A model generated the notes under the pieces. It made no database searches. It saw only the letters and a program-made list of their open reading frames with translations, and was not told where the DNA came from. The position numbers and the translations under genes are program-made. A DNA stretch of 38,080 nt from Oscillospiraceae bacterium (GTDB taxonomy: Bacteria; Bacillota; Clostridia; Oscillospirales; Butyricicoccaceae), in the NCBI GenBank assembly GCA_031547105.1, contig JAVBSJ010000008.1, positions 1 through 38,080 on the forward strand, given 5' to 3'. Shown piece after piece: positions 18,723 to 36,483 of this stretch (position 1 is its first letter; the number at the start of each line of letters is the position of its first letter).

Positions 18723-19637
18723 ATGATGAAAAATTTTTTGAGTATATTGCTAGTAGCAACATTGATGATGTCTACAGGTGTAACGGTATTGGCAGCAGAA
18801 TTTATTTCGGAAGCATCATATAAAAATGAAATTTCATATATGGCAAATGAAGAACTAGCGTCTGTAGAAGTCGAAACGCTATCTATTCAGCAGCAAGCTA
18901 TTTATAAGCAAGAAGTTATGAATAGGCTGGAAGGTGATGGCATTTTTATTATTGACGGAGTAGCGTATGACGGCCAAAATAACGTTATGGCTACTGGTGG
19001 AACAATAGGGCAGTATGTGACCGTGAACAGCGTAACCGCGTCAGGCAATGGATACAAAATCCGGTATACGGTAACGCAGAGTATGCCTATCTCTATTTCA
19101 CTTTGCTATCGTACAGCCCAAACAAGAGGGTATGGGGACTCCTTCATTACCATTCCCAAAACAGCAGGTACATACGAACATACTTTTGCTGTAGGCGGAC
19201 TTCTTTCTCAATGGAAAATTCAGTTCGAAGCAGACATATACGGATATTATGACAGCTTATTTGTGAAAACCGGATATGGTAGGCCTTCTAACAATGTAAG
19301 CACGACATATTATACAGTAACAGCCGCAGATGTCACGGCAAGAAATATAGCACTTACCGTATTAACTGTTGCGGGGGCGCTTAATTTTACGACTGTAGCA
19401 GGTGCAGCGGGAGCAAAGCTTATTGTTTATGCTATAACCGGAGTGAGTGTTATGACAATATGGGACCCTTTCCCAGCCCCTGTTAAAGATCAATATTTTG
19501 TTATATCTTATGCACTTAATGGTACGACTGGAGTATTGACTACAAGAATCCAAATGTGGAGTGACCGTCAGTCTTATAGCAATGGTATGCCAATAAAATA
19601 CGATAAGACACAGACAATGCAGATGCCGTCATTTTGA
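18723..19637 (+). CDS. Hypothetical secreted protein
   Basis: RBS AAGGAGAATAAAG. The signal peptide is MMKNFLSILLVATLMMSTGVTVLAAEF, and there is an internal hydrophobic Ala/Gly-rich segment near residue 210-240. The region is AT-rich and I recognise no family. Confidence 0.6.
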   Translation: MMKNFLSILLVATLMMSTGVTVLAAEFISEASYKNEISYMANEELASVEVETLSIQQQAIYKQEVMNRLEGDGIFIIDGVAYDGQNNVMATGGTIGQYVTVNSVTASGNGYKIRYTVTQSMPISISLCYRTAQTRGYGDSFITIPKTAGTYEHTFAVGGLLSQWKIQFEADIYGYYDSLFVKTGYGRPSNNVSTTYYTVTAADVTARNIALTVLTVAGALNFTTVAGAAGAKLIVYAITGVSVMTIWDPFPAPVKDQYFVISYALNGTTGVLTTRIQMWSDRQSYSNGMPIKYDKTQTMQMPSF

Positions 19638-20058: not shown

Positions 20059-21123
20059 ATGCCGGTGCAGGGAAAGCAAATAAAACAAAGAAACAGAAGT
20101 CTTCTGATTAAGGCTGCACTGCCGGCTTTATGTGTTGCCTTGATTGTCGCGGGGCTTAATCTGTGGGAGAGCTACAAAACCCGCGGTTTCTACAAATATT
20201 TTGCAGAGGCGGGGGTCAGCATGGGCGAGCGTGGCACAAATACAAGATTAGGCAACGTCTTAATTGGCGATACATACTACTATCACCCATCAAAAGGCAA
20301 AGGCATTTACGCCTATACTCCCGGTAGGGGCAACGCGCTCCTGTTGTCAGGAAAGAGGTGCGATTATTACTTTGCCGTTGAGTGTGGGCAGCTTTTCTAC
20401 ACATTTGAGGACAGGCTGTACGCGCTGGAGCTGACAAGCGGTGAGACAAGAGTAATTTTTGACTTTGCCGAACATAATCCGGCTTTGGAAAAAGCGGAAA
20501 TAGATGGTTTTGCAGAAGAAGGAGTTTTGCGGTTGTCCTGTTTTTTGGACAGTGAGCAGGTCTACACGGAGCTTGACTTAGTCACCGCAAAGCTTTCTAT
20601 GCTGCCTGAAACGCCGCTTGGCATCACTGCTTATATCGGCGCACAAAAAATTGAAGTGACTCAAGAGCCTGGCGGGGCAGGTGAGCTGCATATAGGCGGA
20701 CAGCCTGTACTGCCCAAAGGGGCAGTATTCAGTGTTGATTCCCTATATAACGCCACAGAACGTGCCTTTGTGGCGCTATACAAGGTTGGAGGAAAGGACT
20801 TCGGCCGCGTTTTCATGGACAACGGAACGGCGGTTGACCTGCCGGGAGAAGTCGCCTCGGCTTACAAAGTTCTTGCAATCTGCGGCGACCGCACAGTTAT
20901 CCTCGGGCAGGAGAGCAGCCTGTATGGATATGATACGGCCACAGGGAAAGTGACACAGCTTGCGCAGGCAGGCGCGGTAACCGCGGTGACCTGCAATGAA
21001 AAATGGCTGTATGCCTTTTGCCCGCCGAATGGGGGGAGCATAGCCTGCTACAAGGTCATTATGGATGAGCGAGGAGCAGTGACCACACTTGAGAAAGTGA
21101 AAAGCAAAATCCCCCAATCATAA
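20059..21123 (+). CDS. Membrane-anchored hypothetical protein, beta-propeller-like (DUF5050-like) ectodomain
   Basis: An N-terminal signal-anchor (ALPALCVALIVAGL) is followed by repeated Tyr-rich strands (DTYYYH..GIYAY, DYYFAV..LFYTF..LYALEL..TRVIF) reminiscent of DUF5050 blades. The family assignment is tentative. Confidence 0.55.
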   Translation: MPVQGKQIKQRNRSLLIKAALPALCVALIVAGLNLWESYKTRGFYKYFAEAGVSMGERGTNTRLGNVLIGDTYYYHPSKGKGIYAYTPGRGNALLLSGKRCDYYFAVECGQLFYTFEDRLYALELTSGETRVIFDFAEHNPALEKAEIDGFAEEGVLRLSCFLDSEQVYTELDLVTAKLSMLPETPLGITAYIGAQKIEVTQEPGGAGELHIGGQPVLPKGAVFSVDSLYNATERAFVALYKVGGKDFGRVFMDNGTAVDLPGEVASAYKVLAICGDRTVILGQESSLYGYDTATGKVTQLAQAGAVTAVTCNEKWLYAFCPPNGGSIACYKVIMDERGAVTTLEKVKSKIPQS

Positions 21124-21389: not shown

Positions 21390-24300
21390 ATGGCAAGAAC
21401 AATGAAAACAATGGATGGCAATACCGCCGCCGCGCACGCCTCATATGCGTTTACCGACGTTGCCGCCATCTATCCTATCACGCCCTCCTCGGTCATGGCT
21501 GACCTGACCGACTCCTGGGCCGCCAACGGCCAGAAGAACATCTTCGGCCAGGAGGTCAAGGTTGTCGAAATGCAGTCCGAAGGCGGCGCGGCAGGCGCCG
21601 TCCACGGCTCCCTCGCCGCAGGCGCGCTGACAACCACCTTCACCGCCTCACAGGGTCTGCTGCTTATGATCCCCAACATGTACAAAATGGCCGGTGAGCT
21701 GCTGCCATGCGTTATTCACTGCTCGGCACGCGCCCTCGCCTCCCACGCCCTGTCCATTTTCGGCGACCATCAGGACGTTATGGCATGCCGCCAGACCGGA
21801 TTTGCCATGCTGGCATCCACAAACCCCCAGGAAGCTATGGATCTGGGCGCTGTCGCCCACCTTTCCGCCATCAAGGGCAGGGTTCCCTTCCTGCATTTCT
21901 TTGACGGCTTCCGCACCTCACACGAGCTGCAGAAAATCGAAGCATGGGACTATGCCGACCTTAAGGAAATGGTCGATATGGACGCCGTTCAGGCCTTCCG
22001 TGAGCATGCTTTGAACCCTGAGCATCCTGTCCAGAGGGGCTCTGCCCAGAACCCCGACATTTTCTTCCAGGCGAGAGAGGCTTCCAACATCTACTATGAT
22101 ACCCTCCCCGCCATCGTGGAGGAGAACATGGCAAAGGTCAATGCCAAGATCGGCACTGACTATCAGCTGTTCAACTACTACGGCGCGCCCGACGCAACCG
22201 ACGTTATCGTCGCCATGGGCTCTGTGGTTGACACCATCGAAGAGGTGGTCGATTACAAGCTGGCACAGGGCGAAAAGGTCGGCCTGCTTAAGGTTCGCCT
22301 GTACAGACCCTTTGTTTCCCAGAAGTTTGTCGCCGCTCTGCCCAAGACTGTCAAGCGCATTGCCGTTTTAGACAGAACCAAGGAGCCCGGCGCACAGGGT
22401 GAGCCTCTGTATCTGGACGTTGTCACAGCGTTTGCAAGAGAGAACGTCAGGATGGATCTTGTCACCGGCGGCCGCTACGGCCTCGGCAGCAAGGATGTGC
22501 CCCCCTCCAACGTGTTTGCAACCTATGCCAACCTGCAGGCGGACAAGCCCAAGATGACATTTACTGTCGGTATTGAGGATGATGTGACTAACCTGTCCCT
22601 CCCCCTTGATCCCAACGCACCCGACACCTCTGCCCAGGGCACTATCGCCTGCAAGTTCTGGGGTCTGGGCGGCGACGGCACTGTCGGCGCCAACAAGAAC
22701 TCCATCAAGATCATCGGCGACCATACAAACAAAAATGTTCAGGCCTACTTCGCATATGACTCCAAGAAGACAGGCGGCATCACCGTTTCCCACCTGCGCT
22801 TCGGCGACAAGGCCATTCGTTCCACCTATTTTGTCAGCAAGGCTGACTTTGTTGCCTGCCACAACCCCTCCTATGTCACAAAGTATGACATAGTGCAGGA
22901 CGTCAAGAAGGGCGGCACCTTCCTGCTCAACTGCCAGTGGACACCTGAGGAGCTGGATAAATATCTGCCCAACAAGATGAAGGCATATATCGCCAACAAC
23001 AACATCCAGTTCTACACCGTCAACGCTATCGAGCTCGCAAGAGAGCTTGGCATGGGCAAGCACACCAACACCATTCTCCAGTCGGCCTTCTTTAAGCTCG
23101 CCAACATCATGCCCACAGAGGAAGCTGTCGGCTATATGAAGGACGCCGCCAAGAAGTCCTACGGCAAGAAGGGCGACGATGTCGTCCAGATGAACTACAA
23201 CGCCATCGACGCCGGCGTCAACGCGCTGGTCAAGATCGACGTTCCCGCCGCATGGGCGGCCCTTAAGGATGACACCAAGGCTCCCGCAGTCAAGGGCAAT
23301 CGCCCCGAGCTGGTTGAGTTCGTCAAGGAAATCCTTATTCCCGTCTCCGCCCAGAAGGGTGATGAGCTGCCTGTTTCGGTCTTCTCCAAGAACCCCGACG
23401 GCACCTTCCCCTCCGGCAGCTCGGCTTATGAAAAGCGCGGCGTCGCCGTTGAGATTCCCCAGTGGATTCCTGAGAACTGCATCCAGTGCAACCAGTGCTC
23501 CTTTGTCTGCCCCCATGCAACCATCCGTCCCTACGCCATGACAGCTGACGAGGTGGCAAACGCCCCCGCCGGCCTCAAGACGGTCAAGATGATGGGCAAG
23601 GGCTGCGAAGAGTATCAGTTCACCGTATCCATATCCCCGCTGGACTGCATGGGCTGCAACCTCTGCGCCAATGTCTGCCCCTCTAAGAACAAGGCTCTCG
23701 TCATGGTTCCCCAGGAGACTGAGCTTGCACAGCAGGCGGTTTATGACTACACCCTTGAAAACGTCAGCGAGAAGGAGCTTCCCTTCGCTGTTGAGACCGT
23801 CAAGGGCAGCCAGTTCAAGACCCCGCTGCTTGAGTATTCGGGCGCTTGCGCAGGCTGCGTTGAAACTGCCTATGCCCGCCTGATTACCCAACTGTTCGGC
23901 GACCGTATGTATGTCGCCAACGCCACAGGCTGCTCCTCCATTTGGGGCGCTTCGGCACCTTCCATGCCCTATACTGTCAACAAGCAGGGCAGGGGTCCCG
24001 CATGGGCTAACTCCCTCTTTGAGGATAACGCCGAATACGGCCTCGGCATGGCTACCGCCATCAAGCAGATGAGAGCCCGTCTGTCCGACAAGGTCAAGAA
24101 GCTCATCGCTGTTGAGTATTGCGACGCCGACCTTAAGGCCGCGGGCGCAGAGTGGCTGGAAGCTATGAACGACGGCAAAAAGTCCCAGGCAGCTGCCGCC
24201 AAGCTGATCGCCGAGCTGGAAGCCTCCTGCTTCCCCGATCTGACCGGCACCCAGTGGGAGCAGGCCTATAAGGACAACGGCAGCAAGTGCCCCTGCGAGG

Positions 24301-25001
24301 CATGCACCCTGGGCCGCGAAATCCTTAAGGATAAGGACTTCCTGCAGAAGAAGACGGTTTGGATCTTCGGCGGCGACGGCTGGGCATATGACATCGGCTT
24401 CGGCGGACTGGATCATGTTCTGGCTTCCGGGGAGGACATCAACGTCTTCGTCTTTGATACTGAGGTTTATTCCAACACCGGCGGCCAGGCCTCCAAGTCG
24501 ACCCAGATCGGCCAGGTGGCGCAGTTCGCCGCAGCCGGCAAGGCCGTTGCCAAGAAGGATCTTGCCGCAATCGCAATGTCCTACGGCTACGTCTACGTCG
24601 CACAGGTGGGCATGGGCGCCAACCAGCAGCAGACCGTCCGCGCCATTGCCGAGGCGGAGAGCTACAACGGCCCCTCCATCGTCATCGGCTACGCCCCCTG
24701 CGAGATGCACGGCGTAAAGGGCGGCATGGCTAACTCCCAGGCCGAGATCAAGAACGCTGTTGATGCCGGCTACTGGCACCTCTTCCGCTATGATCCCAGA
24801 GTTGCGGCAGAAGGCAAGAACGGCTTCACCCTTGACAGCAAGGCTCCCACAGGCTCCTATAAGGACTTCCTGCAGAACGAGGTGCGCTACACTTCACTGA
24901 CAAGAACCTTCCCCGACAGGGCTACAGAGCTGTTCACACTGGCCGAAAAGACCGCCAAGGCCAAGTATGACCGCCTTGCCAAGCTGGCACAGAATGACTG
25001 A
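21390..25001 (+). CDS. nifJ: Pyruvate:ferredoxin (flavodoxin) oxidoreductase
   Basis: 1203 aa starting from ATG 21390, with AGGAGG upstream. The N-terminus MKTMDGNTAAAH..AIYPITPSS is typical of PFOR. Two ferredoxin-type clusters are present (CIQCNQCSFVCP and CMGCNLCANVCP), as is the TPP motif GGDGWAYDIGFGGLDH. The ORF-track start 21351 is an upstream in-frame extension. Confidence 0.95.
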   Translation: MARTMKTMDGNTAAAHASYAFTDVAAIYPITPSSVMADLTDSWAANGQKNIFGQEVKVVEMQSEGGAAGAVHGSLAAGALTTTFTASQGLLLMIPNMYKMAGELLPCVIHCSARALASHALSIFGDHQDVMACRQTGFAMLASTNPQEAMDLGAVAHLSAIKGRVPFLHFFDGFRTSHELQKIEAWDYADLKEMVDMDAVQAFREHALNPEHPVQRGSAQNPDIFFQAREASNIYYDTLPAIVEENMAKVNAKIGTDYQLFNYYGAPDATDVIVAMGSVVDTIEEVVDYKLAQGEKVGLLKVRLYRPFVSQKFVAALPKTVKRIAVLDRTKEPGAQGEPLYLDVVTAFARENVRMDLVTGGRYGLGSKDVPPSNVFATYANLQADKPKMTFTVGIEDDVTNLSLPLDPNAPDTSAQGTIACKFWGLGGDGTVGANKNSIKIIGDHTNKNVQAYFAYDSKKTGGITVSHLRFGDKAIRSTYFVSKADFVACHNPSYVTKYDIVQDVKKGGTFLLNCQWTPEELDKYLPNKMKAYIANNNIQFYTVNAIELARELGMGKHTNTILQSAFFKLANIMPTEEAVGYMKDAAKKSYGKKGDDVVQMNYNAIDAGVNALVKIDVPAAWAALKDDTKAPAVKGNRPELVEFVKEILIPVSAQKGDELPVSVFSKNPDGTFPSGSSAYEKRGVAVEIPQWIPENCIQCNQCSFVCPHATIRPYAMTADEVANAPAGLKTVKMMGKGCEEYQFTVSISPLDCMGCNLCANVCPSKNKALVMVPQETELAQQAVYDYTLENVSEKELPFAVETVKGSQFKTPLLEYSGACAGCVETAYARLITQLFGDRMYVANATGCSSIWGASAPSMPYTVNKQGRGPAWANSLFEDNAEYGLGMATAIKQMRARLSDKVKKLIAVEYCDADLKAAGAEWLEAMNDGKKSQAAAAKLIAELEASCFPDLTGTQWEQAYKDNGSKCPCEACTLGREILKDKDFLQKKTVWIFGGDGWAYDIGFGGLDHVLASGEDINVFVFDTEVYSNTGGQASKSTQIGQVAQFAAAGKAVAKKDLAAIAMSYGYVYVAQVGMGANQQQTVRAIAEAESYNGPSIVIGYAPCEMHGVKGGMANSQAEIKNAVDAGYWHLFRYDPRVAAEGKNGFTLDSKAPTGSYKDFLQNEVRYTSLTRTFPDRATELFTLAEKTAKAKYDRLAKLAQND

Positions 25002-25070
25002 TTAGTTATCTGACAGCGCCATACAGTTAAACCAAAGCGCCCCTTTCAATTTGAAAGGGGCGCTTTTTGC
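24942..25070 (+). repeat. Copy A of a diverged direct repeat (nifJ 3' end + 3' UTR + terminator)
   Basis: This segment aligns by eye with 27865-27993. See the findings for details. Confidence 0.8.
25037..25068 (+). terminator. Strong intrinsic terminator of nifJ
   Basis: 11-bp stem GCGCCCCTTTC / GAAAGGGGCGC followed by TTTTT. Confidence 0.88.
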
Positions 25071-25107
25071 GAGGAAAGCAAGCAGGTGTCGATTTGCGTA
25101 TTGGCAA

Positions 25108-25118
25108 GGGGGGGGGGG
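25108..25118. repeat. G11 homopolymer tract
   Basis: Eleven consecutive G in the intergenic region between the nifJ terminator and the stop of the convergent gene at 25176. Confidence 0.9.
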
Positions 25119-25175
25119 TAGCCTTATAAAAGGAAAAAGCCCTGAATAATGATGCGCACGGCGCAGCGCAAAAAG

Positions 25176-25688
25176 TTAAGCCCTGCTATTTTCTTTGCGC
25201 TTAAACCGCTTTCTGCATTTGTTGAGAAAAGAGGCAACGCTATATAGGATAAAGCTTCGCCAATATATCATAAAGCAGAGCCTGAGGCCCCCGGTCCATA
25301 CCAATTTTACTAATTCCGATTTAAACAGCATCGGATAATTCGTTCTGCTAAAAGCTATTTCGAATACAATTTCTATGATTGAAACCGCTGCTGCCACCGC
25401 AAAAGAAGCACCTAAAAGCTCGACCCATGAAAGCAATTTGAAGAAAACAAGGCCAACTCCCAAAGCTGCGCAAAGCTTGATACAAAAGTCGATGGCTCTT
25501 GCAGTGTGGGCAAGAAGCTTCTTTGCTTTCAGCTTGCGCATACAGGTATCGTAGTCTGATCCACCCTCGCCAAACGTTTCCAGCAGCATTTTGTGGTCAT
25601 TGCAGACAGCGTAAATATACATAATCTGCAGCAGTGCAAATGTAATGACAAAGAATATCAGGAAGAGAACCTTAATCCTTTTGCGCAT
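25176..25688 (-). CDS. Hypothetical 4-TM membrane protein
   Basis: 170 aa starting from ATG 25688, which is preceded by AAGGAAGGAGGGAAT. The region is AT-rich. The ORF-track extension to 25763 lacks an RBS. Confidence 0.55.
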   Translation of the reverse strand: MRKRIKVLFLIFFVITFALLQIMYIYAVCNDHKMLLETFGEGGSDYDTCMRKLKAKKLLAHTARAIDFCIKLCAALGVGLVFFKLLSWVELLGASFAVAAAVSIIEIVFEIAFSRTNYPMLFKSELVKLVWTGGLRLCFMIYWRSFILYSVASFLNKCRKRFKRKENSRA

Positions 25689-25770
25689 ATTCCCTCCTTC
25701 CTTCAAGCCTTGGAATTGCTGAAGACGAATGGCAGCATCATAGAACGGGCTGCAGGATGCCATGCGTATG

Positions 25771-27525
25771 CTACCGAAGCTCCGGAAGGCTGCTTAAATA
25801 CGCGCCCGCCCAAAGAGTTTCCATATCCCTGGTAACTCTGTCAATTTCGTATTCCGCAATGTCTCCCCAAAGGCCAAAGGCGTTTGTGGCGCGGGGCAAG
25901 AGCCCGGATATTTTGTCCAGGAGCTTAGTATCCTCAATAAGCTTGGCGCGGCTCCCCTCGTGAGCCATGCAGGCATACACCGCGTTTGCCGCTCCAAGCA
26001 GGGGGACATCGCTATTGCTAATATACTGTTGGGCTAGCTCGTAAACAGTTTCTCCGGAGGGAACCTCTCCCAGCCAAAGTCTTATGGCAGCGAAAAGCGG
26101 CCGATACCCGGGATTCGCCTGTCTAAAGGCTGTTGCCTCTGCGCTTTTGGTATTTTCCAGATCACCGATTTTTTCCAATATACTTTCGGCAAACCCAGCC
26201 GGAAGGGGTCTGTTTTCATCCGCGTGTTGCAGCGCCATCAAAAGCAAAAGCGCACTATTTGGGCACTTGTCCATTGATGATAAAAAATATCTCCAGGCGC
26301 TCTCCCTCTGGCCTTCGATATCGGGCAAACCGCTTTCCGCGCGCAATATCGCAAAATGGGCGGGGAAAGCACTTGGATAGGGATTAAACCTCAGTTTGCC
26401 CTCTATTTCACGGTACTCGGTTTGGCCATCAATATAAGTGGTAATTTTCTCTTTCCAGTCAGGGTCGTCCATGTATTTAAGCGCCAAAAGGCCAAACAAG
26501 CTAGTATGGGGATTACCGCCCAAACTCATATCCGCGAAAGTGCCGTCGCTGCATTCATGAGCAATAAAAATATCCAGAGTTTTGGAAAAATCAAAGTCTA
26601 TATCAAGTATGCCGCATATTCTCGCGCAGAGATATATGGCTTGGGGGTCGCCGCCCCACATAATCGTGGAGAGCTGTATGATACCGGGAACCTGAGGATG
26701 CCGCAAACGCTCCAAATATGCTGAGACGCGCTCTTTGCCGTCTGCCGGAAACCAACCCATACGCTCTGCGATGTAGGCATAACTAAACAAAGTAACAAGA
26801 TCCAGTTTGCCTTTTTCCATATCAGCATAGATTGTCTCTTCGTAAGCGTCCCAATGGGCGGATAAAAAATCATTATTGAGTTCTATATTAAAGCCAAGCT
26901 CCTCCTCGAGCAGCATAAGAATATATAGCCTGCCGTAAAAATCGACGAAATTGCCCGTGTGTTGCAAAGACTTCTCCCAGCTGTCTTTTGCTGTGGACAG
27001 AGCGGTAGACAGTCCTTGCTTGTCATAGGACAGGCCGGCTGCCTCATAAACTGACGCCGAATAATATATCAGAAGGGGATCCGCGGGGTTGTCTTTGTCA
27101 AGGGCAGCCGCCAAATCTCTGTTATTTTTTAGGGCGGCAACAAAAGCCTTGGAGTTCTGCAAATATGCCTTAAACAGACCTGTAAAATAAAAGCAGTCCT
27201 CATATGACATAATGTCACCGGGCATTGGATTTTCACCAAAATATATATTTTCTTGCATATATTCTCTGGCGTAGTTGGGGAATATGATTTTGCAGGCCTC
27301 ATTCATATAATAAGTGGAATACAAGGAGGAAGACACGGGCGGCTTCCCAAACCCCCCATCCCAGCTGATTTGGGCATTTAACCTGTCAAGGGGAGATATT
27401 TCTTCGCTGTAGCTGGGGAAAACCCAGGATGATTTATCGGTGTATGTTGTGTTTTGCGCGCAGGAAGAAAACATAAGCGCCGTCAAAAGCAGACATATGA
27501 GCTTTAAAAAACTGCTTTTGCTCAT
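25771..27525 (-). CDS. Hypothetical lipoprotein, helical-repeat (alpha/alpha-toroid-like) architecture
   Basis: Starting from ATG 27525 the N-terminus is MSKSSFLKLICLLLTALMFSSC-AQ, a signal peptide ending in Cys. Motifs such as SDGTFADMSLGGNPHTSLFGLLAL recall prenyltransferase/terpene-cyclase-type repeats. The fold call is tentative. Confidence 0.55.
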   Translation of the reverse strand: MSKSSFLKLICLLLTALMFSSCAQNTTYTDKSSWVFPSYSEEISPLDRLNAQISWDGGFGKPPVSSSLYSTYYMNEACKIIFPNYAREYMQENIYFGENPMPGDIMSYEDCFYFTGLFKAYLQNSKAFVAALKNNRDLAAALDKDNPADPLLIYYSASVYEAAGLSYDKQGLSTALSTAKDSWEKSLQHTGNFVDFYGRLYILMLLEEELGFNIELNNDFLSAHWDAYEETIYADMEKGKLDLVTLFSYAYIAERMGWFPADGKERVSAYLERLRHPQVPGIIQLSTIMWGGDPQAIYLCARICGILDIDFDFSKTLDIFIAHECSDGTFADMSLGGNPHTSLFGLLALKYMDDPDWKEKITTYIDGQTEYREIEGKLRFNPYPSAFPAHFAILRAESGLPDIEGQRESAWRYFLSSMDKCPNSALLLLMALQHADENRPLPAGFAESILEKIGDLENTKSAEATAFRQANPGYRPLFAAIRLWLGEVPSGETVYELAQQYISNSDVPLLGAANAVYACMAHEGSRAKLIEDTKLLDKISGLLPRATNAFGLWGDIAEYEIDRVTRDMETLWAGAYLSSLPELR

Positions 27526-27605
27526 GTATCTAAGGTTGATGCCGAGTAGGGCAATAACAGGCAAACGGCAAGCGTAATAGGGAGGATCTTAAATAAGTTC
27601 TTCAT
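27522..27605 (-). CDS. 27-codon upstream micro-ORF encoding a signal-peptide-like peptide
   Basis: AAAGGAGAAGAAGT precedes the ATG, giving MKNLFKILPITLAVCLLLPYSASTLDT*. The stop overlaps the lipoprotein ATG as ATGA. Confidence 0.25.
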   Translation of the reverse strand: MKNLFKILPITLAVCLLLPYSASTLDT

Positions 27606-27650
27606 ACTTCTTCTCCTTTATTTTTACTTTTTAAGTCCTGCACACTTATC

Positions 27651-27666
27651 AAAGAAAGCTTTCTTT
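27651..27666. promoter_or_regulatory. Perfect 16-bp palindrome (operator candidate)
   Basis: AAAGAAAGCTTTCTTT lies ~45 nt upstream of the micro-ORF/lipoprotein start. Confidence 0.3.
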
Positions 27667-27861
27667 ATACTTATATACTACTACAAAGTGAAAAAAATTC
27701 CATTTGCGCAATTGATGAAATCAAAACTCATATTTGTACATACTTAACGAAGAAATCAAAAAGCATTGCCCTGCCGTGGCAAAAGTGATATTATATTAAT
27801 AATAGGGTATTTTACAGTATGAAAATATTTCTAGTCGGGTCGCTTATTTTGCGGTGCCTGT

Positions 27862-27924
27862 GCCGCCGAAAAGACCACTAAGGCCAAGCATGGCCGCATT
27901 GCCAAGCCGGCACAAAACGACTGA
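27862..27924 (+). pseudogene. Orphan 3'-terminal fragment of a nifJ-like gene (last 20 codons + stop)
   Basis: It translates as AAEKTTKAKHGRIAKPAQND*, compared with the intact nifJ C-terminus LAEKTAKAKYDRLAKLAQND*. No gene body lies upstream. Confidence 0.75.
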
Positions 27925-27959
27925 TTAGTTATCTGCCAGCGTCATATAGCTAAAGCTAA

Positions 27960-27989
27960 ACGCCTCTTTCAGCTTGAAAGAGGCGTTTT
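27960..27989 (+). terminator. Terminator belonging to the duplicated nifJ 3' segment
   Basis: 12-bp stem ACGCCTCTTTCA / TGAAAGAGGCGT followed by TTTT. It is homologous to 25037-25068 and carries a compensatory base-pair change. Confidence 0.75.
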
Positions 27990-28004
27990 GTTATGCCCGC
28001 GTTC

Positions 28005-28034
28005 TTGACGGAAAAGCAGCCCGGATGGTAAAAT
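28005..28034 (+). promoter_or_regulatory. SigA-type promoter candidate
   Basis: TTGACG, an 18-nt spacer, then TAAAAT, lying 37 nt upstream of ATG 28071. Confidence 0.5.
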
Positions 28035-28070
28035 AATACTAAAAAAGTATACTTTGAAAAGGAGAGGCAA

Positions 28071-29033
28071 ATGAACGTATGGAATATTGGCAGCCACAAC
28101 ATATCTCCCGGAGAGAAAAGGCAAGTAATGCTGACGCCTGCGGAGGGGTGTGAAATCCCATTTACCGCCATAAACGGCAGTGTCGAGGGAAAGACAGTTT
28201 TGGTAACGGCGGCTGTCCACGGGGACGAGTATCCGGGGGTTGCGGCGGCCGTCCGCATGGCGGCGCAGCTTGACCCGGAAAGGGTCAGCGGGCGCATTTT
28301 GATTGCCCACTGCGTAAACGCAAGCGGATTTTGGAACAAATCGCTATATGTAGCCGAGGATGGCTTTAACTTAAACAACGGTTATCCCGGCAGGCCAAAC
28401 GGTACACCGGGGGAGTGCATTGCCGATTTTTTCGTAAAAGAGGTGTTTCCTCAAACGGATTTTGTCATTGACCTCCACAGCGGCAGCGCGATGGAGCCGC
28501 TGGCTCCATGCCTGTTTTTCCCAAACGCCGCGGGGGATGCGGTGCGTGATATTTCACTTGAGGCTGCTAAAGCCACAAGCATCCCCTATCTGATCGCGTC
28601 TGAAGCCAAAACAGGGCATTACAGCTATGCCGCCCATATGGGTATACCGGGGCTGCTGTTGGAAAGGGGGCATTCCGGCCTTTGCGAAAAGGAATGGGTG
28701 GACAATTACTGCCGTGACTTAAGCCAGCTTTTTAGCCATTTAGGTGTATATCCCGGCTGTGAAGGAGAAAGGGTGTGCCCTAAAACCGTATTCAGCAAGA
28801 CGGTCTACCTGGCTGCGGGGCAGCAGGGGTTATGGTACCCGGAGGTAAGCGAGGGGCAGGAAATCAAAAAGGGGAATCCTTTGGGCCGGCTGGAGGATTT
28901 CTACGGCAACGTCCTTGAAGAATATAAAGCGCAGGGGGACGGTACTGTGTTTTACTACACCGGCGGGCTTGCCGTGAAAAAAGGCGCGCCGCTGGTTGCC
29001 TATGGGCTGGCGGAGTATGCCAAAAGCATTTGA
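28071..29033 (+). CDS. Succinylglutamate desuccinylase/aspartoacylase-family (M14-like) zinc hydrolase
   Basis: RBS AAGGAGAGG. The AVHGDEYPG (HxxE zinc site), NLNNGYPG and IDLHSGS motifs are typical of the AstE/AspA family. Confidence 0.8.
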   Translation: MNVWNIGSHNISPGEKRQVMLTPAEGCEIPFTAINGSVEGKTVLVTAAVHGDEYPGVAAAVRMAAQLDPERVSGRILIAHCVNASGFWNKSLYVAEDGFNLNNGYPGRPNGTPGECIADFFVKEVFPQTDFVIDLHSGSAMEPLAPCLFFPNAAGDAVRDISLEAAKATSIPYLIASEAKTGHYSYAAHMGIPGLLLERGHSGLCEKEWVDNYCRDLSQLFSHLGVYPGCEGERVCPKTVFSKTVYLAAGQQGLWYPEVSEGQEIKKGNPLGRLEDFYGNVLEEYKAQGDGTVFYYTGGLAVKKGAPLVAYGLAEYAKSI

Positions 29034-29145
29034 GATATTCATGCAGGGAGAAGCTTTTGCAATAGGCCTGCGCCAATATCTTTTATTGCGCAGCCGCGTC
29101 AATGGGAGGGGAGCCTTATGAAGAAAATCACAAAATATTATTATC

Positions 29146-29382
29146 ATGGTTGTGATCGTTCTTTTTTCCATGCAAGCATGGCCGGGAGAAGAGGCGGCGA
29201 GAAGGCTTTATAAGGACGGCAGTAAGGATTACACTGATGATATTGGGCGCATTGTTGACCCTATGACGTTTATGCTGCCCGTTATACTAAGGGTGTTGGC
29301 CTTGGGGCTGATGGGAAGCTTCGCTGTATATATTATATTTAAGCGGCGTAGAGGCGCGAAAAAGGGTGCCGAATCAGAATAA
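29146..29382 (+). CDS. Small secreted/C-terminally anchored protein, start probably displaced by a 1-nt frameshift
   Basis: The 78-aa ORF has a hydrophobic N-terminus and a C-terminal TM helix followed by KRRRGAKK. A good RBS plus ATG sits at 29104-29120, but in another frame. See the findings for details. Confidence 0.45.
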   Translation: MVVIVLFSMQAWPGEEAARRLYKDGSKDYTDDIGRIVDPMTFMLPVILRVLALGLMGSFAVYIIFKRRRGAKKGAESE

Positions 29383-29383
29383 G

Positions 29384-29526
29384 TTTAATGGGGATTTAGA
29401 CGGCGATTGGATAGCAGATACCTTTAAAACGGAGTTGGATGGCGGGGCTTTTAACACCGACTTGGATGGAGACCGGATGGGCGGATTTTTAACGCGGATT
29501 TTGACGGTAGCCGGATGGCAGGCAGG
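29384..29526. repeat. Four degenerate tandem units TTTAA-N(4-7)-GAyTTrGAyGG
   Basis: The units start near 29384, 29423, 29450 and 29486. They lie in the convergent 3' intergenic region. Confidence 0.4.
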
Positions 29527-29534
29527 AAAAATAA

Positions 29535-29562
29535 AACAGGGCGGCAACTGCCGCCCTGTTTT
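29535..29562. terminator. Bidirectional terminator
   Basis: Stem AACAGGGCGGCA / TGCCGCCCTGTT, flanked by A-rich sequence on the 5' side and T-rich sequence on the 3' side. Confidence 0.75.
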
Positions 29563-29570
29563 CGTATTAT

Positions 29571-30140
29571 TTATTCCTTCGGTATCGGCCCTGCGGCAAG
29601 CATTTCTTCATGGTAGCGGACAATGATCGCCCGCGCCGCATTGTACAGGTTTTCATCGGTGGCCTGGTAGAGCGGAAAGGACATACTGTCATCACGCGGC
29701 TTATTTGGGCGGCTCACCATCATCTGCAGCTTTTCCGATCCCTCAGGATTTGCCTCATCTTCAAATGCCATTGAAAAGCGCACAGTTTTTTTATCATCCG
29801 GATCGCCTCTGCTGTCGTATATAGAAAATCCGTACCTGTTGTTATTGACGCCCAGCGGGATAGCGGCATAAGATATGGATTCTGATGTTTTCCGCAGGGA
29901 CTTGCAGAAGGCGTGGAGCACATCAATATCCTCTTGGTCGGTTATGGCAAGCTCATAAAATTGTTTCCCACTAGGGGTATAATAGCCTCCTATCCTGACG
30001 GCACAGCTTTCAGGGCTTGGCAGCCACAGCTTGTCCCTGTAATAGTACTGCCGCCCGAAAAAGATAAGAAGGACAAGGGCAATGGCTGCCAAGCCGTAGA
30101 GTATAAGCTTTTTGTTGGTTTTGCTAAGGTGTTTTGTCAT
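29571..30140 (-). CDS. Membrane-anchored hypothetical protein, paralogue A
   Basis: 189 aa with an N-terminal signal-anchor (LILYGLAAIALVLLIFF). It is homologous along its length to the next gene and has an identical 32-aa C-terminus. Confidence 0.65.
   Translation of the reverse strand: MTKHLSKTNKKLILYGLAAIALVLLIFFGRQYYYRDKLWLPSPESCAVRIGGYYTPSGKQFYELAITDQEDIDVLHAFCKSLRKTSESISYAAIPLGVNNNRYGFSIYDSRGDPDDKKTVRFSMAFEDEANPEGSEKLQMMVSRPNKPRDDSMSFPLYQATDENLYNAARAIIVRYHEEMLAAGPIPKE
29572..29666 (-). repeat. Near-identical 3' gene block, copy 1
   Basis: 29581-29666 is identical to 30181-30266 (86 nt), an offset of exactly 600 bp. Confidence 0.9.
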
Positions 30141-30170: not shown

Positions 30171-30701
30171 CTATTCCTTAGGTATCGGCCCTGCGGCAAG
30201 CATTTCTTCATGGTAGCGGACAATGATCGCCCGCGCCGCATTGTACAGGTTTTCATCGGTGGCCTGATAATACCAATACACAGGAAGAAGCCGTCGCCCC
30301 TGCGGTTCCGTGACACATACTTGAAGTTTTTCCGTCATTCCCGGTTCATTGTCAAGGCTCAATGAAATTGTAAACGACCCTCCATTATCAGTGTTGATTA
30401 AAACTGAATAGGTTACAGCTAGCCCACCATGAGGTATTTCAAAAGAAGTTTTAGTTAGCGACTTTGCAAAGGCATAAAGACTATCAATATCGTTCTGGTC
30501 GGTAATTTTCATCGAGTAGCTGGTTGGATAGGCCGACTCACCTCCATAGTAGAAGACGGTAAATGCACAGTTTTCCTCAGCGGGTAATTTCAACCTAAAG
30601 CCAAGTATATCAGACCCGGCAATAATCAATGCCAAGACAATGACGGCAGCCAGCCCGTAAAGGGTGCGCTTTATAAATGTTTTAACAAAGTATCTTGCCA
30701 T
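30171..30701 (-). CDS. Membrane-anchored hypothetical protein, paralogue B
   Basis: 176 aa with a signal-anchor (LYGLAAVIVLALIIAG). It lies 6 nt downstream of the peptidase stop. Confidence 0.65.
   Translation of the reverse strand: MARYFVKTFIKRTLYGLAAVIVLALIIAGSDILGFRLKLPAEENCAFTVFYYGGESAYPTSYSMKITDQNDIDSLYAFAKSLTKTSFEIPHGGLAVTYSVLINTDNGGSFTISLSLDNEPGMTEKLQVCVTEPQGRRLLPVYWYYQATDENLYNAARAIIVRYHEEMLAAGPIPKE
30172..30266 (-). repeat. Near-identical 3' gene block, copy 2
   Basis: See copy 1 (29572-29666). Confidence 0.9.
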
Positions 30702-30707
30702 ATTTTG

Positions 30708-31871
30708 TTAAAACATAACACATACAATGTAATATTCCTCATCGTAAGCATTAAGGTAAAAATATTCTTCATCGAATTCAACGTTGGTTGCGGCATTATT
30801 TCCTGTTGCAGGATCCATAAAATTTATTATGCCAACATTATCTGTGCTCTGATAATTATAGTATCCCCTAAGAACTATAGCGTGTCCAACAATTACTTCA
30901 TTAGGATCATCGCTGTCGTAAACGCCATCTCGAAATGTAGCCCCATACATCACATATCCAGCATATATCAAGCCGCAATAGTCGTAAAACGGCATACTGT
31001 CATTAAAATCATCTATGGTTCCACCAAATCCGATAATGTTGGGATATAATCCCCACAATGCTTCTCTTGCTGTATATGTATTGGCTCCCTGACTGTCTAT
31101 ATAAGGAAGGTTAAAATAGCTATAAACTTGGGATTCTGTTTTTACTAAGCCTGAATAATATTCTCCTATTGTGCGCACACAAGCAGCCCAGCAACTCCTG
31201 CTTTTCTGCTGCTGATATTGTGGAGTGTCGAGCGAGTACTGTACCGGTATTGTGGATGCGGAACTAGCAGAGCTTTGGCTGTAGCTTGCAGATTCTGACT
31301 GCTCAAGAGCAACAAGCTGCACTTGCTTTTCCATAGCGGTCTCCTCCAAGTTGAGGGCGGAGATGTTAATGCTTTCCGCAGATACCCTGCCGCTTGCAGA
31401 CACTTGCGTGCCGCTGTAGACCGTTTCCAATGCGCCTTCGCTTAAAACATACCCGCTGGTGTTGTCGAAAACAAGGGCGATTTGTGCGTTGTCCTCATAG
31501 TAGGGGGTAAGCTCGGCCACCAAATCGGTTCCGGCGGTGATGTGGACAAATCCGTTTTCTTTAACCAAAACCCTTGCCGTCAGAACAAGCCGGTCATCAT
31601 GTGTGAAAATCGGATAGTTTTCAACCTCAACGGGCTCAAGCCCATCCTCAAGAACCTCATACGCGGGGATAGGGGCACCGATGTAAAGGGAATCAAAGTC
31701 AGAAGGCTCCATATCAAAGGCCGTGGCATCGTACTCCAGGGCATAGAGAAAGCGCGCAATCTCTTCAAGCTTCTGGCTTTGTGAGACGGTGACCTTATCA
31801 AAATCGGCGGCAAAGACTGTGCCGGAAACCAGCATCATAGCGGCTACCATAATAGCTAAAACCTTTTTCAT
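30708..31871 (-). CDS. Secreted papain-fold cysteine peptidase with N-terminal pro/accessory domain
   Basis: RBS GAAAGGAG and signal peptide MKKVLAIMVAAMMLVSGTVFA. A Ser-rich linker (SESASYSQSSASSAS) precedes the C-terminal domain. That domain carries Q-x5-C in QQKSRSCWAAC, then VGHAIVLRGY, then FMDPATGNN, in the Gln/Cys/His/Asn order of papain-like (C39/C70-like) enzymes. The subfamily is not assignable by eye. Confidence 0.65.
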   Translation of the reverse strand: MKKVLAIMVAAMMLVSGTVFAADFDKVTVSQSQKLEEIARFLYALEYDATAFDMEPSDFDSLYIGAPIPAYEVLEDGLEPVEVENYPIFTHDDRLVLTARVLVKENGFVHITAGTDLVAELTPYYEDNAQIALVFDNTSGYVLSEGALETVYSGTQVSASGRVSAESINISALNLEETAMEKQVQLVALEQSESASYSQSSASSASTIPVQYSLDTPQYQQQKSRSCWAACVRTIGEYYSGLVKTESQVYSYFNLPYIDSQGANTYTAREALWGLYPNIIGFGGTIDDFNDSMPFYDYCGLIYAGYVMYGATFRDGVYDSDDPNEVIVGHAIVLRGYYNYQSTDNVGIINFMDPATGNNAATNVEFDEEYFYLNAYDEEYYIVCVMF

Positions 31872-32582: not shown

Positions 32583-32636
32583 AACCAAGGAACTTTTAGG
32601 GGGATTGTGCGTCTTAATATTCAAGAGGTGATCTTT

Positions 32637-33947
32637 ATGAAAAGGGTTTTGAAAATGATGTGCTTATTTGTGGCGGCTGCAACGCTGGCAGGCTGCGCCG
32701 GGACGAGCAGCGGCATAATAAGCATCGTGCCTGTGACCAAAAACGCCCTGATAGAGCCTAAGTACGGGGAGACCGACCAGGCATCGGTCAAGGCCGCCCA
32801 AGGCGCCAACGGCTTTGCATTGCGTTTGAGCGCCGCGCTCTCAGAGGCGCGGGAGAGCGATAATTTCCTTTGCTCACCCTATTCGGTTTGGCTGCCCCTT
32901 GCGGCGCTGCTTAACGCCACCAACGAGCAAAGCAGGCCTGCCTTGCTGGAGGCGCTTGGCGCCGCAGGGCTTACGGCGGAGGAGGTAAACAAAGCGGCCT
33001 CCCGCATGCTGTATGAGCTTACAAGGGAGCAGGTGGTTTACGATGAGAGTAAGCCAAACAAGGAGTACCGCTACACTCCGCTGAAAATTGCAAACGCCAT
33101 ATTTGTCGATAATACGGTAACCCTTAAAAAGTCCTTTGCGCAGGCCTTTGCCGATTATTATCTCGGCACCTCAGCCAACGTGGATTTTCAATCTCCCGAT
33201 GCCGTCAAAGCGGTAAATGACTGGGCAAGTGAGAATACCGGCGGCCTTATAAAGGATATTATTCAGGAGTTTGACCCCGATACCATAGCGGCTATCGCCA
33301 ACGCTATTTATTTTTCCGACACGTGGGCCGATAAGTTTAACCCCGACAAAACGGAAGAAGGGGCATTTAACAGCCCTTCGGGTGAAAGCAAGGCCGATTT
33401 TATGGTCAAGCAGGGGGATGGTATGCGCTATTATGCCGATGACAGTTTGCAAGCCGTCAGTCTCCGCTTTGCCTCCAATGCAAGTATGTTTATTCTGCTG
33501 CCGAAGGATGGGGACGCGGACGGCCTGCTGCAGTCGCTGACATCTGTGGATTTTGATTCCATCCGGCAGGGGATGACCAACTCAAGCGGGATGCTGAAGC
33601 TGCCTAAGTTCTCTATCGAGAGCGATGTAATCTCTCTGAAGGAGGCGTTGGTAGGCATGGGAGTGCCCCTTTTCGATAAGGAGGCGGCGCCTTTGAGCGG
33701 CGGTTTGCTGGAGGAGGATATAGGGGTTTACGCCTCACAGGCGGTGCAGAAGGCGGCCATCAAGGTTGATGAGGAGGGCACAACGGCCGCCGCTGTGACG
33801 GTGGTTATGATGAATCCCACCTCCATGCCTATACAAACAGAGCCCTTTGAAATGGTTTGTGACAAGCCGTTTGTGTTTATATTGTGCGGAAGCACCTATG
33901 ACGGAGGAGATCAGATACTTTTTACCGGTGTGGTAAACAAGCCGTAA
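32637..33947 (+). CDS. Serpin-family lipoprotein (serpin 1)
   Basis: The start is ATG 32637, 6 nt after GAGGTG. The lipobox is ATLAGC. The protein carries the serpin hinge EEGTTAAAVT and the C-terminal PFVFIL...FTGVVNKP. Confidence 0.88.
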   Translation: MKRVLKMMCLFVAAATLAGCAGTSSGIISIVPVTKNALIEPKYGETDQASVKAAQGANGFALRLSAALSEARESDNFLCSPYSVWLPLAALLNATNEQSRPALLEALGAAGLTAEEVNKAASRMLYELTREQVVYDESKPNKEYRYTPLKIANAIFVDNTVTLKKSFAQAFADYYLGTSANVDFQSPDAVKAVNDWASENTGGLIKDIIQEFDPDTIAAIANAIYFSDTWADKFNPDKTEEGAFNSPSGESKADFMVKQGDGMRYYADDSLQAVSLRFASNASMFILLPKDGDADGLLQSLTSVDFDSIRQGMTNSSGMLKLPKFSIESDVISLKEALVGMGVPLFDKEAAPLSGGLLEEDIGVYASQAVQKAAIKVDEEGTTAAAVTVVMMNPTSMPIQTEPFEMVCDKPFVFILCGSTYDGGDQILFTGVVNKP

Positions 33948-34083: not shown

Positions 34084-35379
34084 ATGAAAAGGCAGATTAG
34101 TATATTGTGCATGCTGGCAGCTGTTGCGCTGCTGGTCGGATGCGGTGGCATTGGCAGCGGGGTTATGAGCGTTGTGCCAGTAACAGAAAACCCACTTGTA
34201 AAGCCCGATTACGAAGTGGATGACCCTCAAGCGGAGCAGGCGGCACTGGGCGCCAACGACTTTGCGTTCCGGCTGAGCGCCGCACTGTCTCAACAGGAGC
34301 AAGGGGAGAACCTGATTTGCTCGCCTTATTCGGTTTGGCTGCCCCTTGCGGCGCTGCTTAACGCCACCAATGAACAAAGCAAACCGGCGCTGCTGGAGGC
34401 TATCGGCGCAGCAGGCCTTACAACGGAGGAGGTCAACCGCGCAGCCGCCCGGATGATGTATTTTCTCACGAAGGAGCAAGCCTTTGAGGGCAAGTTGCCC
34501 GGCAAGCAGGACTATTACACCCCGCTGAAAATCGCAAATGCCGTATTCGTCAGCCGTGAGGAGGTTTTACAGCAAAGCTTTGCCCAGACCTTCGCCGATT
34601 ACTACAAAGGAGCCTCCATCAATGTGGATTTCACCTCCCCTGACGCGGCAAAGGCGGTCAACAGGTGGGCAGCAGAAAATACCGAGGGGCTAATCAAGGA
34701 GATGGTAAATGAGTTTGACCCCAATACCGTGGCGGTAATTGCGAATGCAATGTATTTTTCAGACACGTGGCAGTGGAAGTTTGATCCCGAAAAGACAGAG
34801 GAAGGAGTTTTCCACGGAATAGCAGAGGACAGCAAAGCTGATTTTATGCTTAAGCAGGGAGACGGGATAACATATTATGAGGATGAGCGTCTGCAGGCCG
34901 TTTGCCTGCCTTTTGGCTCAGCTGCGCAAATGACGGTTTTGCTGCCTGTTAATGGAGACGGGGACGGGCTTCTTCAGGCTATGACGGCTGATTACTTTGC
35001 CCAGATACATGAGGAAGCGGATGGCTGCACAGGGAGGCTGCTGCTGCCGAAGTTTGAAATTGAAAGCGAGCTTATGCCGCTGTCCGATATCCTTATGGCT
35101 ATGGGTGTTCCTCTTTTTGAAGGTGCGCCGCTTACCGGCCTGATTGAAGCCGACATACCCGTTTGGCTGGATCAGGCGGTGCAGAAGGCGGCCATCAAGG
35201 TGGATGAGGAGGGCACAACGGCCGCCGCTGTGACCCTGATGGCGACACTGGGCGGATACCCCCGGCCATCTGAGCCCTTTGAAATGGTATGTGACAAGCC
35301 GTTTGTATTTATTTTAAGCAGCTACACTCAAGACGGAGGAGATCAGATACTTTTTACCGGTGTGGTAAACAAGCCGTAA
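34084..35379 (+). CDS. Serpin-family lipoprotein (serpin 2)
   Basis: RBS AAAGGAGGT and lipobox LLVGC. It has the same hinge and C-terminal motifs as serpin 1 but a different reactive-centre loop. Confidence 0.9.
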   Translation: MKRQISILCMLAAVALLVGCGGIGSGVMSVVPVTENPLVKPDYEVDDPQAEQAALGANDFAFRLSAALSQQEQGENLICSPYSVWLPLAALLNATNEQSKPALLEAIGAAGLTTEEVNRAAARMMYFLTKEQAFEGKLPGKQDYYTPLKIANAVFVSREEVLQQSFAQTFADYYKGASINVDFTSPDAAKAVNRWAAENTEGLIKEMVNEFDPNTVAVIANAMYFSDTWQWKFDPEKTEEGVFHGIAEDSKADFMLKQGDGITYYEDERLQAVCLPFGSAAQMTVLLPVNGDGDGLLQAMTADYFAQIHEEADGCTGRLLLPKFEIESELMPLSDILMAMGVPLFEGAPLTGLIEADIPVWLDQAVQKAAIKVDEEGTTAAAVTLMATLGGYPRPSEPFEMVCDKPFVFILSSYTQDGGDQILFTGVVNKP

Positions 35380-35874: not shown

Positions 35875-36228
35875 TTAAAGAGCAGCCTTTGCCTTTTCCA
35901 CAAGGGCGGTAAACGCCTTGGGGTCGGATATGGCGATCTCGGACAGCATTTTGCGGTTGAGGGTGATGCCGGCCTTTGTAAGACCGTTGATAAATCTGGA
36001 ATAGTTGATGCCGTTGGGCTTGCAGGCGGCGGAAATTCTGGAGATCCACAGCCTTCTGAAATCTCTTTTCTTCAGCTTTCTGCCGGTGTAGGCATACTTG
36101 AGGGACTTCATAACGGCCTGGTTGGCTAACTTATAATGGCTCTTTCTGGAACCCCAGTAACCCTTGGCCAGCTTTATAATTTTCTTTCTTCTTTTACGCG
36201 TAGACAACGCGCCTTTTACTCTTGCCAT
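35875..36228 (-). CDS. rplT: 50S ribosomal protein L20
   Basis: [26 protein letters not shown]... is a full-length L20 signature. Confidence 0.96.
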
Positions 36229-36256
36229 TCTGTGTCATTCCTTTCGTTTCCGGGGT

Positions 36257-36457: not shown

Positions 36458-36483
36458 ACTACTTCTCCTCTCTTGTGGAACAG

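Follow-up and report, generated by a model that had tools for sequence, protein, structure and literature searches.

A diverged duplicate of the nifJ 3′ end brackets a two-gene orphan insert in an Oscillospiraceae contig

How does an intact metabolic gene come to be followed, 2.9 kb further downstream, by a second copy of its own 3′ end? The question is raised by contig JAVBSJ010000008.1 of an Oscillospiraceae bacterium (assembly GCA_031547105.1), of which positions 1 to 38,080 were analysed; this whole stretch is called the window below. The gene is nifJ, which encodes pyruvate:ferredoxin (flavodoxin) oxidoreductase (PFOR). The end of nifJ (copy A) and its downstream counterpart (copy B) form a diverged direct repeat, and the segment of ~2.8 kb between them is a self-contained minus-strand unit comprising a small open reading frame (ORF), a lipoprotein gene and a gene for a protein with ~4 transmembrane (TM) helices. 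The evidence supports an insertion scar in which nifJ has remained whole, with a dead duplicate of its 3′ end left behind downstream. As for its cause, we see about an even chance that homologous recombination by the host brought in DNA of a related genome, one that had a small operon downstream of its nifJ.

The nifJ gene (21390–25001, plus strand) is intact and encodes 1203 aa, with a match to TIGR02176 at 1816 bits and the complete Pfam PFOR domain set. Its true start is the ATG at 21390, preceded by an AAGGAGG ribosome-binding site, its stop codon lies at 24999–25001, and its GC content at third codon positions (GC3) is 0.75. A reading of this DNA made beforehand from its letters (the sequence-only reading) had placed the end of nifJ at 25001 with a strong terminator behind it, and the full-length PFOR, the stop codon and the hairpin at 25034–25066 agree with this. 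Copy A (24942–25066, plus strand) consists of the last 57 coding nt, the stop codon, the 32-nt 3′ untranslated region (UTR) and the terminator of the live gene. Its peptide tail, AEKTAKAKYDRLAKLAQND, is the consensus of the closest 60 PFOR homologues (AKAKY[DE]RLAKLAQND). The nearest of these share only 79–81% identity, and the DNA of their loci has nothing in common with the insert or its flanks; the upstream genes alone match, at the protein level. The PFOR of the window is also ~22 aa longer than its closest homologues, and its residues ~826–975 (window ~23865–24315) share 53–64% identity with them, as against ~80–95% elsewhere. This stretch appears to be a lineage-specific variable or insertion segment.

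The repeat is beyond doubt. A blastn comparison of the window with itself aligns 24942–25067 with 27865–27989 (84.1% over 126 nt, E = 4.9e-28), far beyond chance, and MAFFT and a repeat finder both give two copies of 125 nt (24942–25066 and 27865–27989, 84%), which align without gaps at a constant offset of 2923 nt. The block takes in the final 57 coding nt of nifJ, the stop codon, the 3′ UTR and the terminator hairpin. Of the 20 positions at which copies A and B differ, 8 are coding, 5 belong to the UTR and 7 to the hairpin; 15 of the 20 differences are transitions. At the repeat, the sequence reads ...TTCACACTG on the nifJ side and GCCGAAAAGACCACTAAGG in the copy-B counterpart. The sequence-only reading had claimed this repeat and had set a formal alignment as its test, which it passes; two of its by-eye details need correction, as there are 9 rather than ~12 mismatches in the first 76 nt and the colinear alignment needs no indel in the UTR. 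The identical 17-mer that it had seen across the stop codon, GACTGATTAGTTATCTG, is present and is the longest identical run shared by A and B. By our own calculation, a longest identical run of ~17 nt is expected at 84% identity over 126 nt. Since its length equals this chance expectation, the 17-mer is no evidence for a recombination core.

The left boundary of the repeat is abrupt at both copies (24941/24942 and 27864/27865), with no common bases directly to its left. A repeat search found no inverted-repeat arm sites around the repeat. Tandem duplication of the whole 2923-nt unit was rejected, as the DNA 3′ of copy B is unlike that 3′ of copy A. A transposon target-site duplication was also rejected: at 125 nt the repeat is far too long, and it is accompanied by neither terminal inverted repeats nor a transposase.

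Copy B (27865–27989, plus strand) comprises a coding remnant that includes the stop codon (27865–27924), followed by the UTR and the hairpin. As the sequence-only reading had described, it runs in frame to the stop codon but has no gene body. The frame is open from 27835 only and holds no start codon, so a small protein encoded by the relic was rejected; 27865–27924 should be labelled a nifJ pseudogene fragment, not a small gene. The relic peptide, AEKTTKAKHGRIAKPAQND up to the stop, shows five amino-acid differences, all of them off consensus (Tyr to His, Leu to Pro, Asp to Gly, Leu to Ile and Ala to Thr), and the Tyr changed to His is nearly invariant. When A and B are polarised with the DNA of the four nearest relatives, all five polarisable differences are derived in B. 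Because it lacks a start codon and all of these changes lie on its side, copy B is a dead remnant. In relatives whose PFOR is 79–81% identical, UTRs and terminators bear no similarity to either copy. It follows that A and B have a recent common ancestor, much younger than any sampled relative, and that this ancestor included the non-coding part of a real nifJ locus. Non-coding DNA of this kind would come with the nifJ locus of a close relative, and an element would not need to keep it.

Might copy B instead be all that is left of a second nifJ? A PFOR paralogue with its own terminator would then have stood upstream of the gene that now follows copy B, which encodes an AstE-like protein, and would have been cut down to its last 57 coding nt. 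Copy B does run in frame to a stop and then decay, like a truncated pseudogene, PFOR paralogues occur in many Clostridia, and the compensatory changes between the two hairpins (see below) would fit two terminators that were once functional. This history, however, takes at least three events (a duplication that includes the UTR and terminator, insertion of the operon and a deletion of 3.55 kb), where an insertion takes one. The genes in between are compositionally foreign orphans, and beside copy B there is no remnant of the nifJ 5′ end, body or promoter: a Smith-Waterman comparison of 27606–27864 with the nifJ upstream region and gene body scores 16, below the shuffle mean of 19–21. Among 83 fetched loci of relatives, just one has a second OFOR within 8–10 kb of nifJ, a distant split-subunit type with ~30% identity, and none has a second PFOR of the nifJ type within that distance, these loci being those of distant relatives only. 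A deleted paralogue, which had been proposed beforehand as the alternative to insertion, is therefore weakened though not refuted; it is less parsimonious, and we regard it as unlikely.

The content of the insert argues for a foreign origin. Cargo gene 1 (25771–27525, minus strand) encodes a 584-aa, all-helical lipoprotein with a signal peptide and the lipobox MFSSC. Cargo gene 2 (25176–25688, minus strand) encodes a 170-aa membrane protein with about four hydrophobic helices; it starts at 25688, with a GGAGGG site 4 nt upstream. The lipoprotein is a near-orphan: a search of 5.8e9 proteins returns only itself, and an exhaustive phmmer search of 1.84e9 representatives finds two homologues at 23% identity, one of which has a weak match to the prenyltransferase-repeat family Prenyltrans (PF00432). 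The membrane protein is an orphan, without homologues other than itself among the 5.8e9 proteins. Neither cargo protein has a match in Pfam, NCBIfam, PHROGs or PADLOC, no relatives of the cargo occur in phage, plasmid or IMG/VR data, and exact-protein look-ups for the lipoprotein, nifJ and a 195-aa version of the TM protein return no record. In locus L085, the gene that follows the lipoprotein homologue is unrelated to the TM protein, so the two genes do not form a conserved module. An AlphaFold2 (AF2) model of the lipoprotein, built from a 3-sequence alignment, is all-alpha and poor (pLDDT 60). A fold assignment was attempted and rejected, as Foldseek against the PDB gives uninformative, generic helical-repeat noise (best E 0.12, TM ≤0.27).

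Composition sets the cargo apart as well. The GC content of the insert is 0.43–0.48 against 0.58 for nifJ, and GC3 is 0.52 for the lipoprotein gene and 0.49 for the membrane protein gene, against 0.63–0.75 for the backbone genes. Since its GC3 lies below that of all backbone genes, the cargo is compositionally foreign; low GC3 is also found in other orphan genes of the window. What the sequence-only reading had said of the make-up of the insert holds: it is AT-richer than nifJ, although GC3 gives the better contrast, it carries a lipoprotein and a ~4-TM protein gene on the minus strand, it has a G11 tract at its left edge, and there is no integrase, neither here nor anywhere in the 38-kb contig. 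The G11 homopolymer (25108–25118, plus strand) is non-coding and lies downstream of the TM gene, 40 nt past the terminator of nifJ. A terminator-like hairpin directly after the stop codon of the TM gene (25153–25170, minus strand) is a candidate operon terminator, from a consensus match in a terminator scan. At the unit's opposite end, a 27-aa ORF, MKNLFKILPITLAVCLLLPYSASTLDT (27522–27605, minus strand), is preceded by a strong AAAGGAGAA site, and its stop codon overlaps the start of the lipoprotein gene (ATGA), an overlap that would allow translational coupling. This site is the strongest ribosome-binding site of the region, the lipoprotein gene having none of its own, and the 27-aa product resembles a signal peptide or lipobox. 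Its role may be that of a coupled leader peptide, or it may represent an older N-terminus that has been frameshifted. The right end of the insert (27606–27864; GC ~0.36–0.38) is non-coding and presumably holds the promoter of the cargo operon.

The wider gene order places the insert at a boundary. Upstream of the repeat, the order unk445, unk360, MoxR, Clp, x, ComM, nifJ is common to the window and to its closest relative, L082 (81% PFOR identity), and ComM and nifJ are adjacent in 19 of the 83 fetched loci. Downstream, the genes of 25.2–35.4 kb are absent near nifJ in all 83 loci, so that ~10 kb of lineage-specific genes lie beyond the nifJ terminator. Given conserved synteny upstream of nifJ and none downstream, the terminator end of nifJ marks the boundary between backbone and variable DNA. 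No close relative of the lineage was found in GTDB representatives, JGI metagenomes, IMG/VR or the 5.8e9-protein set.

On the right, the hairpin of copy B is followed within 12 nt of its tail by a sigma-70-like promoter (TTGACG-18-TAAAAT, 28005–28034, plus strand; 10/12 with a TG extension, a consensus match only), and this by a gene for an AstE/AspA-family deacylase-like protein (28071–29033, plus strand; PF24827, 1.1e-24), whose GC3 of 0.61 is near that of the backbone. A promoter directly after hairpin B is as expected if B is the resident terminator of nifJ. The AstE-like protein has no relatives in GTDB representative genomes or JGI metagenome contigs, but an identical protein with its flank is found in Logan accession SRR23967709, where contig L001 reproduces 27630–29666 at 100% identity, including the stretch where the cargo leader, copy B and the AstE-like gene join. 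This is the only other occurrence, and its right junction is filled.

Direct repeats of a gene's 3′ end around foreign DNA bring to mind a site-specific integrative islet of the type seen with e14 and phage 21 at icd, with copy A, the supplied end, as attL and copy B, the displaced native end, as attR. An element whose attP resembled the nifJ 3′ end would then have been integrated by its own tyrosine or serine recombinase, and later deletions would have taken away the integrase and all else but the two cargo genes. The architecture of icd, e14 and icdC (PMC13626634, citing Hill et al. 1989) is indeed the same, the repeats enclose compositionally foreign DNA, and at ~16% divergence the event looks old enough for an integrase to have been lost. 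A second locus, L049 (described below), has an exact 49-nt duplication around a 1.1-kb HNH insert at its nifJ terminator, and the spot is therefore open to long-duplication insertions. Yet no recombinase, excisionase, phage, plasmid, conjugative or defence gene was detected in the 38-kb contig with Pfam, NCBIfam, PHROGs or PADLOC. The cargo lacks phage, plasmid and IMG/VR relatives, the DNA pattern of the stop codon and UTR has no match in metagenome or viral contigs, and arm sites are missing. With the longest identical run at chance length, no core is evident, and there is no reason for an attP site to match the entire UTR and terminator and to end exactly there. Finally, a duplicated nifJ coding end is found in none of 82 relatives, and there is thus no sign of an element family that targets nifJ. 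A decayed islet is accordingly a doubtful, though not a negligible, explanation. From the insertion model of the sequence-only reading, the scar with an intact nifJ, a foreign orphan cargo absent at 83 loci and a derived copy B is retained; its attL/attR interpretation as a site-specific element is not.

An integrase-free route is favoured because the duplicated block includes the whole UTR and terminator, no mobility gene lies within 38 kb, and no core exceeds chance. Recombination through the homology of nifJ and its terminator explains the same anatomy. We infer the arrangement of the donor, the route of recombination and which of the copies is native as follows. Copy B would be the original 3′ end and terminator of nifJ, moved 2.9 kb downstream by a foreign segment. 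The incoming DNA would have come from a related genome with an antisense operon (small ORF, lipoprotein and 4-TM protein) just past its own nifJ, and would thus have carried a homologous nifJ 3′ end and terminator, so that host homologous recombination could have acted through ~125 nt of homology. A circularised fragment may have entered by a Campbell-type single crossover, which gives the observed product directly; alternatively, homology may have anchored one end only, with the second joint illegitimate. In either case the resulting order would be nifJ with its replacement end and terminator A, then the cargo, then the displaced end with terminator B, followed by the AstE-like gene behind its native promoter. 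On the right, the homology would stop at the end of the terminator because the conserved backbone gives way there to strain-variable DNA, and its left edge, 57 nt before the stop codon, would be the arbitrary end of the captured fragment. Afterwards, nifJ would have stayed under selection while the coding part of copy B decayed, and hairpin B would have persisted as an insulator of the AstE-like promoter or by chance.

Several points weigh against this recombination model. Neither a donor-type locus (nifJ with the cargo) nor an empty site (nifJ, terminator B and the AstE-like gene) was found in the collections searched, and the route is reconstructed from one genome. As a rule, homology-facilitated illegitimate recombination removes DNA of the recipient and does not duplicate its anchor, a Campbell-type event needs a circular intermediate whose origin is hypothetical, and 125 nt is short for RecA-dependent exchange between partners that have already diverged. 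No mosaic signal is seen along nifJ, where resolution is poor at 80% identity. The intactness of hairpin B is mildly unexpected for a neutral relic, as ~7% of simulations with 19 substitutions keep it. The left junction, from copy A to the cargo, is present in a single assembly. This last point would also be expected of a misassembly that joined nifJ to the cargo, with the two repeat copies drawn from separate strains or loci: the window is one metagenomic contig, its left junction lacks independent support, and a G11 run lies 40 nt beyond terminator A. The copies are, however, only 84% identical and share no run longer than 17 nt, so that k-mer assemblers would neither collapse nor bridge them, and the right junction is exact in the assembly of a separate sample. 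The G11 run is shorter than any usual k and should be too short to mislead an assembler with k≥21. A misassembly is, on this evidence, barely credible.

The two hairpins carry a further signal. Hairpin A with its T-run (25034–25068, plus strand) has perfect 16-bp arms (25034–25049 and 25051–25066), a predicted fold of −25.6 kcal/mol (z −5.6; minus strand −26.2) and an entry in the terminator scan; being palindromic, with an A-rich 5′ flank, it could act bidirectionally. Hairpin B with its TTTTGTT tail (27958–27993, plus strand; hairpin 27958–27988) has perfect 14-bp arms and a predicted fold of −23.4 kcal/mol (z −6.0). The scan, whose rule calls for at least 5 T in 8 bases, lists A and not B, and no plus-strand gene lies upstream of B. 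The C-to-T change in one arm that is matched by G-to-A in the other, which had been noticed beforehand along with the foldability of both hairpins, is real, and a second compensatory pair, G:C to A:T, is found at the base of the stem. As both pairs are compensatory, pairing is kept at both stem differences. Among random versions of hairpin A with 7 substitutions, 0.8% fold as well as B, and neutral simulations keep the hairpin in ~7–17% of cases (19 substitutions across the repeat for the 7% figure). Continued selection on B is thus only suggested. The two compensatory pairs fit terminators that may each have been functional in separate lineages before they were joined.

Alternatively, copy B may have been kept for a function at the RNA level, as an insulator or terminator before the AstE-like promoter or as the 3′ part of a ~190-nt transcript from a promoter-like site at 27766–27794; that it arose as a duplicate of the nifJ end would then be secondary. 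The perfect stem of hairpin B, despite 7 differences in 33 nt, speaks for this. Judging from the letters, both compensatory routes could have passed through G-U intermediates on plus-strand RNA, and 170 nt upstream, on the same strand, there is a promoter-like site whose −10 is extended. Against it, promoter-like matches in the region are no commoner than in shuffles (5 versus 5.3), Rfam has no match, neutral simulations keep the hairpin at the rate given above, and the compensatory changes may have arisen in the selected lineage of copy A or before the copies were joined. Such a function is very unlikely to account for copy B.

Locus L049 (DBFWVW010000067.1, Oscillospiraceae MAG8912) has its own insertion at the nifJ terminator. 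An exact 49-nt direct repeat (11565–11613 and 12718–12766) brackets an insert of 1.1 kb directly before an MscS channel gene; the repeat starts in the 3′ arm of the nifJ terminator of that locus, and within the insert are a gene for an HNH endonuclease (PF01844, 2e-12) and a 125-aa ORF. One could imagine that the terminator end of nifJ is a preferred landing site for small, recombinase-less modules that copy the terminator region of their target (125 nt here, 49 nt in the unrelated L049), with the relic hairpin kept as an insulator. This idea is highly improbable; if true, it would amount to a terminator-targeted, integrase-independent mechanism of insertion.

Other parts of the window also depart from the gene order of relatives. 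Two orphan ORFs (18723–19637 and 20059–21123, plus strand; GC3 0.33 and 0.54) separate ComM from nifJ, two genes that stand side by side in relatives, and neither ORF is found near nifJ in any of the 83 loci. They are a second insertion specific to this lineage, upstream of nifJ this time, and no repeat was detected at their flanks. The infC-rpmI-rplT operon is upstream of ComM in L083, while in the window it lies at 35875–37053 (minus strand), ~11 kb downstream of nifJ and in the opposite orientation, which implies that one of the lineages has inverted or rearranged its ComM-nifJ block. A 38-nt direct repeat (13038–13075 and 13125–13162, 92%) lies between MoxR and Clp, a region in which L082 has a small ferredoxin gene that is not evident in the window. 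A scan found no tRNA or tmRNA gene in the window, and there was no Rfam match.

Beyond the AstE-like gene, two orphan paralogues (29571–30140 and 30171–30701, minus strand) encode proteins that are 44% identical overall and 99% identical in their last 31 residues, or 95 nt (29572–29666 and 30172–30266). This suggests recent gene conversion or 3′-end exchange. Logan contig L001 breaks exactly at this repeat. Both paralogues belong to an operon headed by a gene at 30708–31871 (minus strand) for a 387-aa orphan that weakly matches Peptidase_C70/AvrRpt2, a family of papain-like cysteine proteases (E 2e-4). Further along are tandem bacterial serpin genes (32607–33947 and 34084–35379, plus strand; PF00079, 3e-79 and 6e-74) with an HxlR-type regulator gene divergently upstream; their 3′ ends are 82% identical over 215 nt, versus 72% for the bodies.

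The scar adds one more case to a known class of events and reveals no new mechanism or system. Its value lies in being a clean, datable record of how a poorly sampled lineage of Clostridia gained orphan surface and membrane genes beside a gene of central metabolism and left that gene undamaged. It also marks the terminator end of nifJ as the boundary between a conserved backbone and a ~10-kb accretion zone of orphan genes, and it cautions that a repeat without a recombinase should not be read as an att site. With closer relatives sequenced, the locus could serve as an example that separates integrase-mediated from homology-anchored acquisition.

The closest parallel in anatomy is the 15-kb prophage e14, which has its own integrase and SOS-inducible excision and whose insertion in the E. 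coli icd gene leaves the C-terminal pseudogene icdC (PMC13626634, citing Hill, Gray and Brody 1989). The likeness is that an essential metabolic gene stays intact through a slightly diverged replacement 3′ end, while the old 3′ end, like icdC, persists beyond the insert as a promoterless piece that is still in frame, and that the two ends form diverged direct repeats. Unlike e14, the insert at nifJ measures 2.8 kb, holds two orphan genes and has no recombinase, and unlike at icd, the duplication extends across the UTR and all of the terminator. In islands at tRNA and tmRNA 3′ ends, direct repeats of the target gene's 3′ end likewise surround compositionally foreign DNA; here, in contrast, the target is protein-coding, no tRNA or tmRNA gene is present in the window, there is no integrase, and the repeats are diverged throughout without an exact core.

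Integrase-free displacement is known from arrays of effector and immunity genes of the Rhs, contact-dependent inhibition (CDI) and type VI secretion system (T6SS) families, in which homology-facilitated illegitimate recombination shifts old 3′ ends downstream (PMC5361080; mechanism PMC3240628). As at nifJ, a conserved upstream gene serves as the anchor and the resident 3′ region is orphaned downstream. In those arrays, however, the incoming 3′ end lacks homology to the old one and codes for another toxin tip, in a process that recurs and is adaptive, whereas here the ends are homologous (84%), the anchor is a housekeeping oxidoreductase, only one event is seen, and the cargo is antisense to the anchor. 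In a Campbell-type single crossover, the whole shared block is duplicated as direct repeats around the insert, and the target remains intact if the block reaches the end of the gene. Such insertion-duplication is known mainly from engineered suicide plasmids; unlike these, a natural 2.9-kb circle with 125 nt of nifJ homology is hypothetical here, but insertion-duplication predicts exactly the product seen at nifJ.

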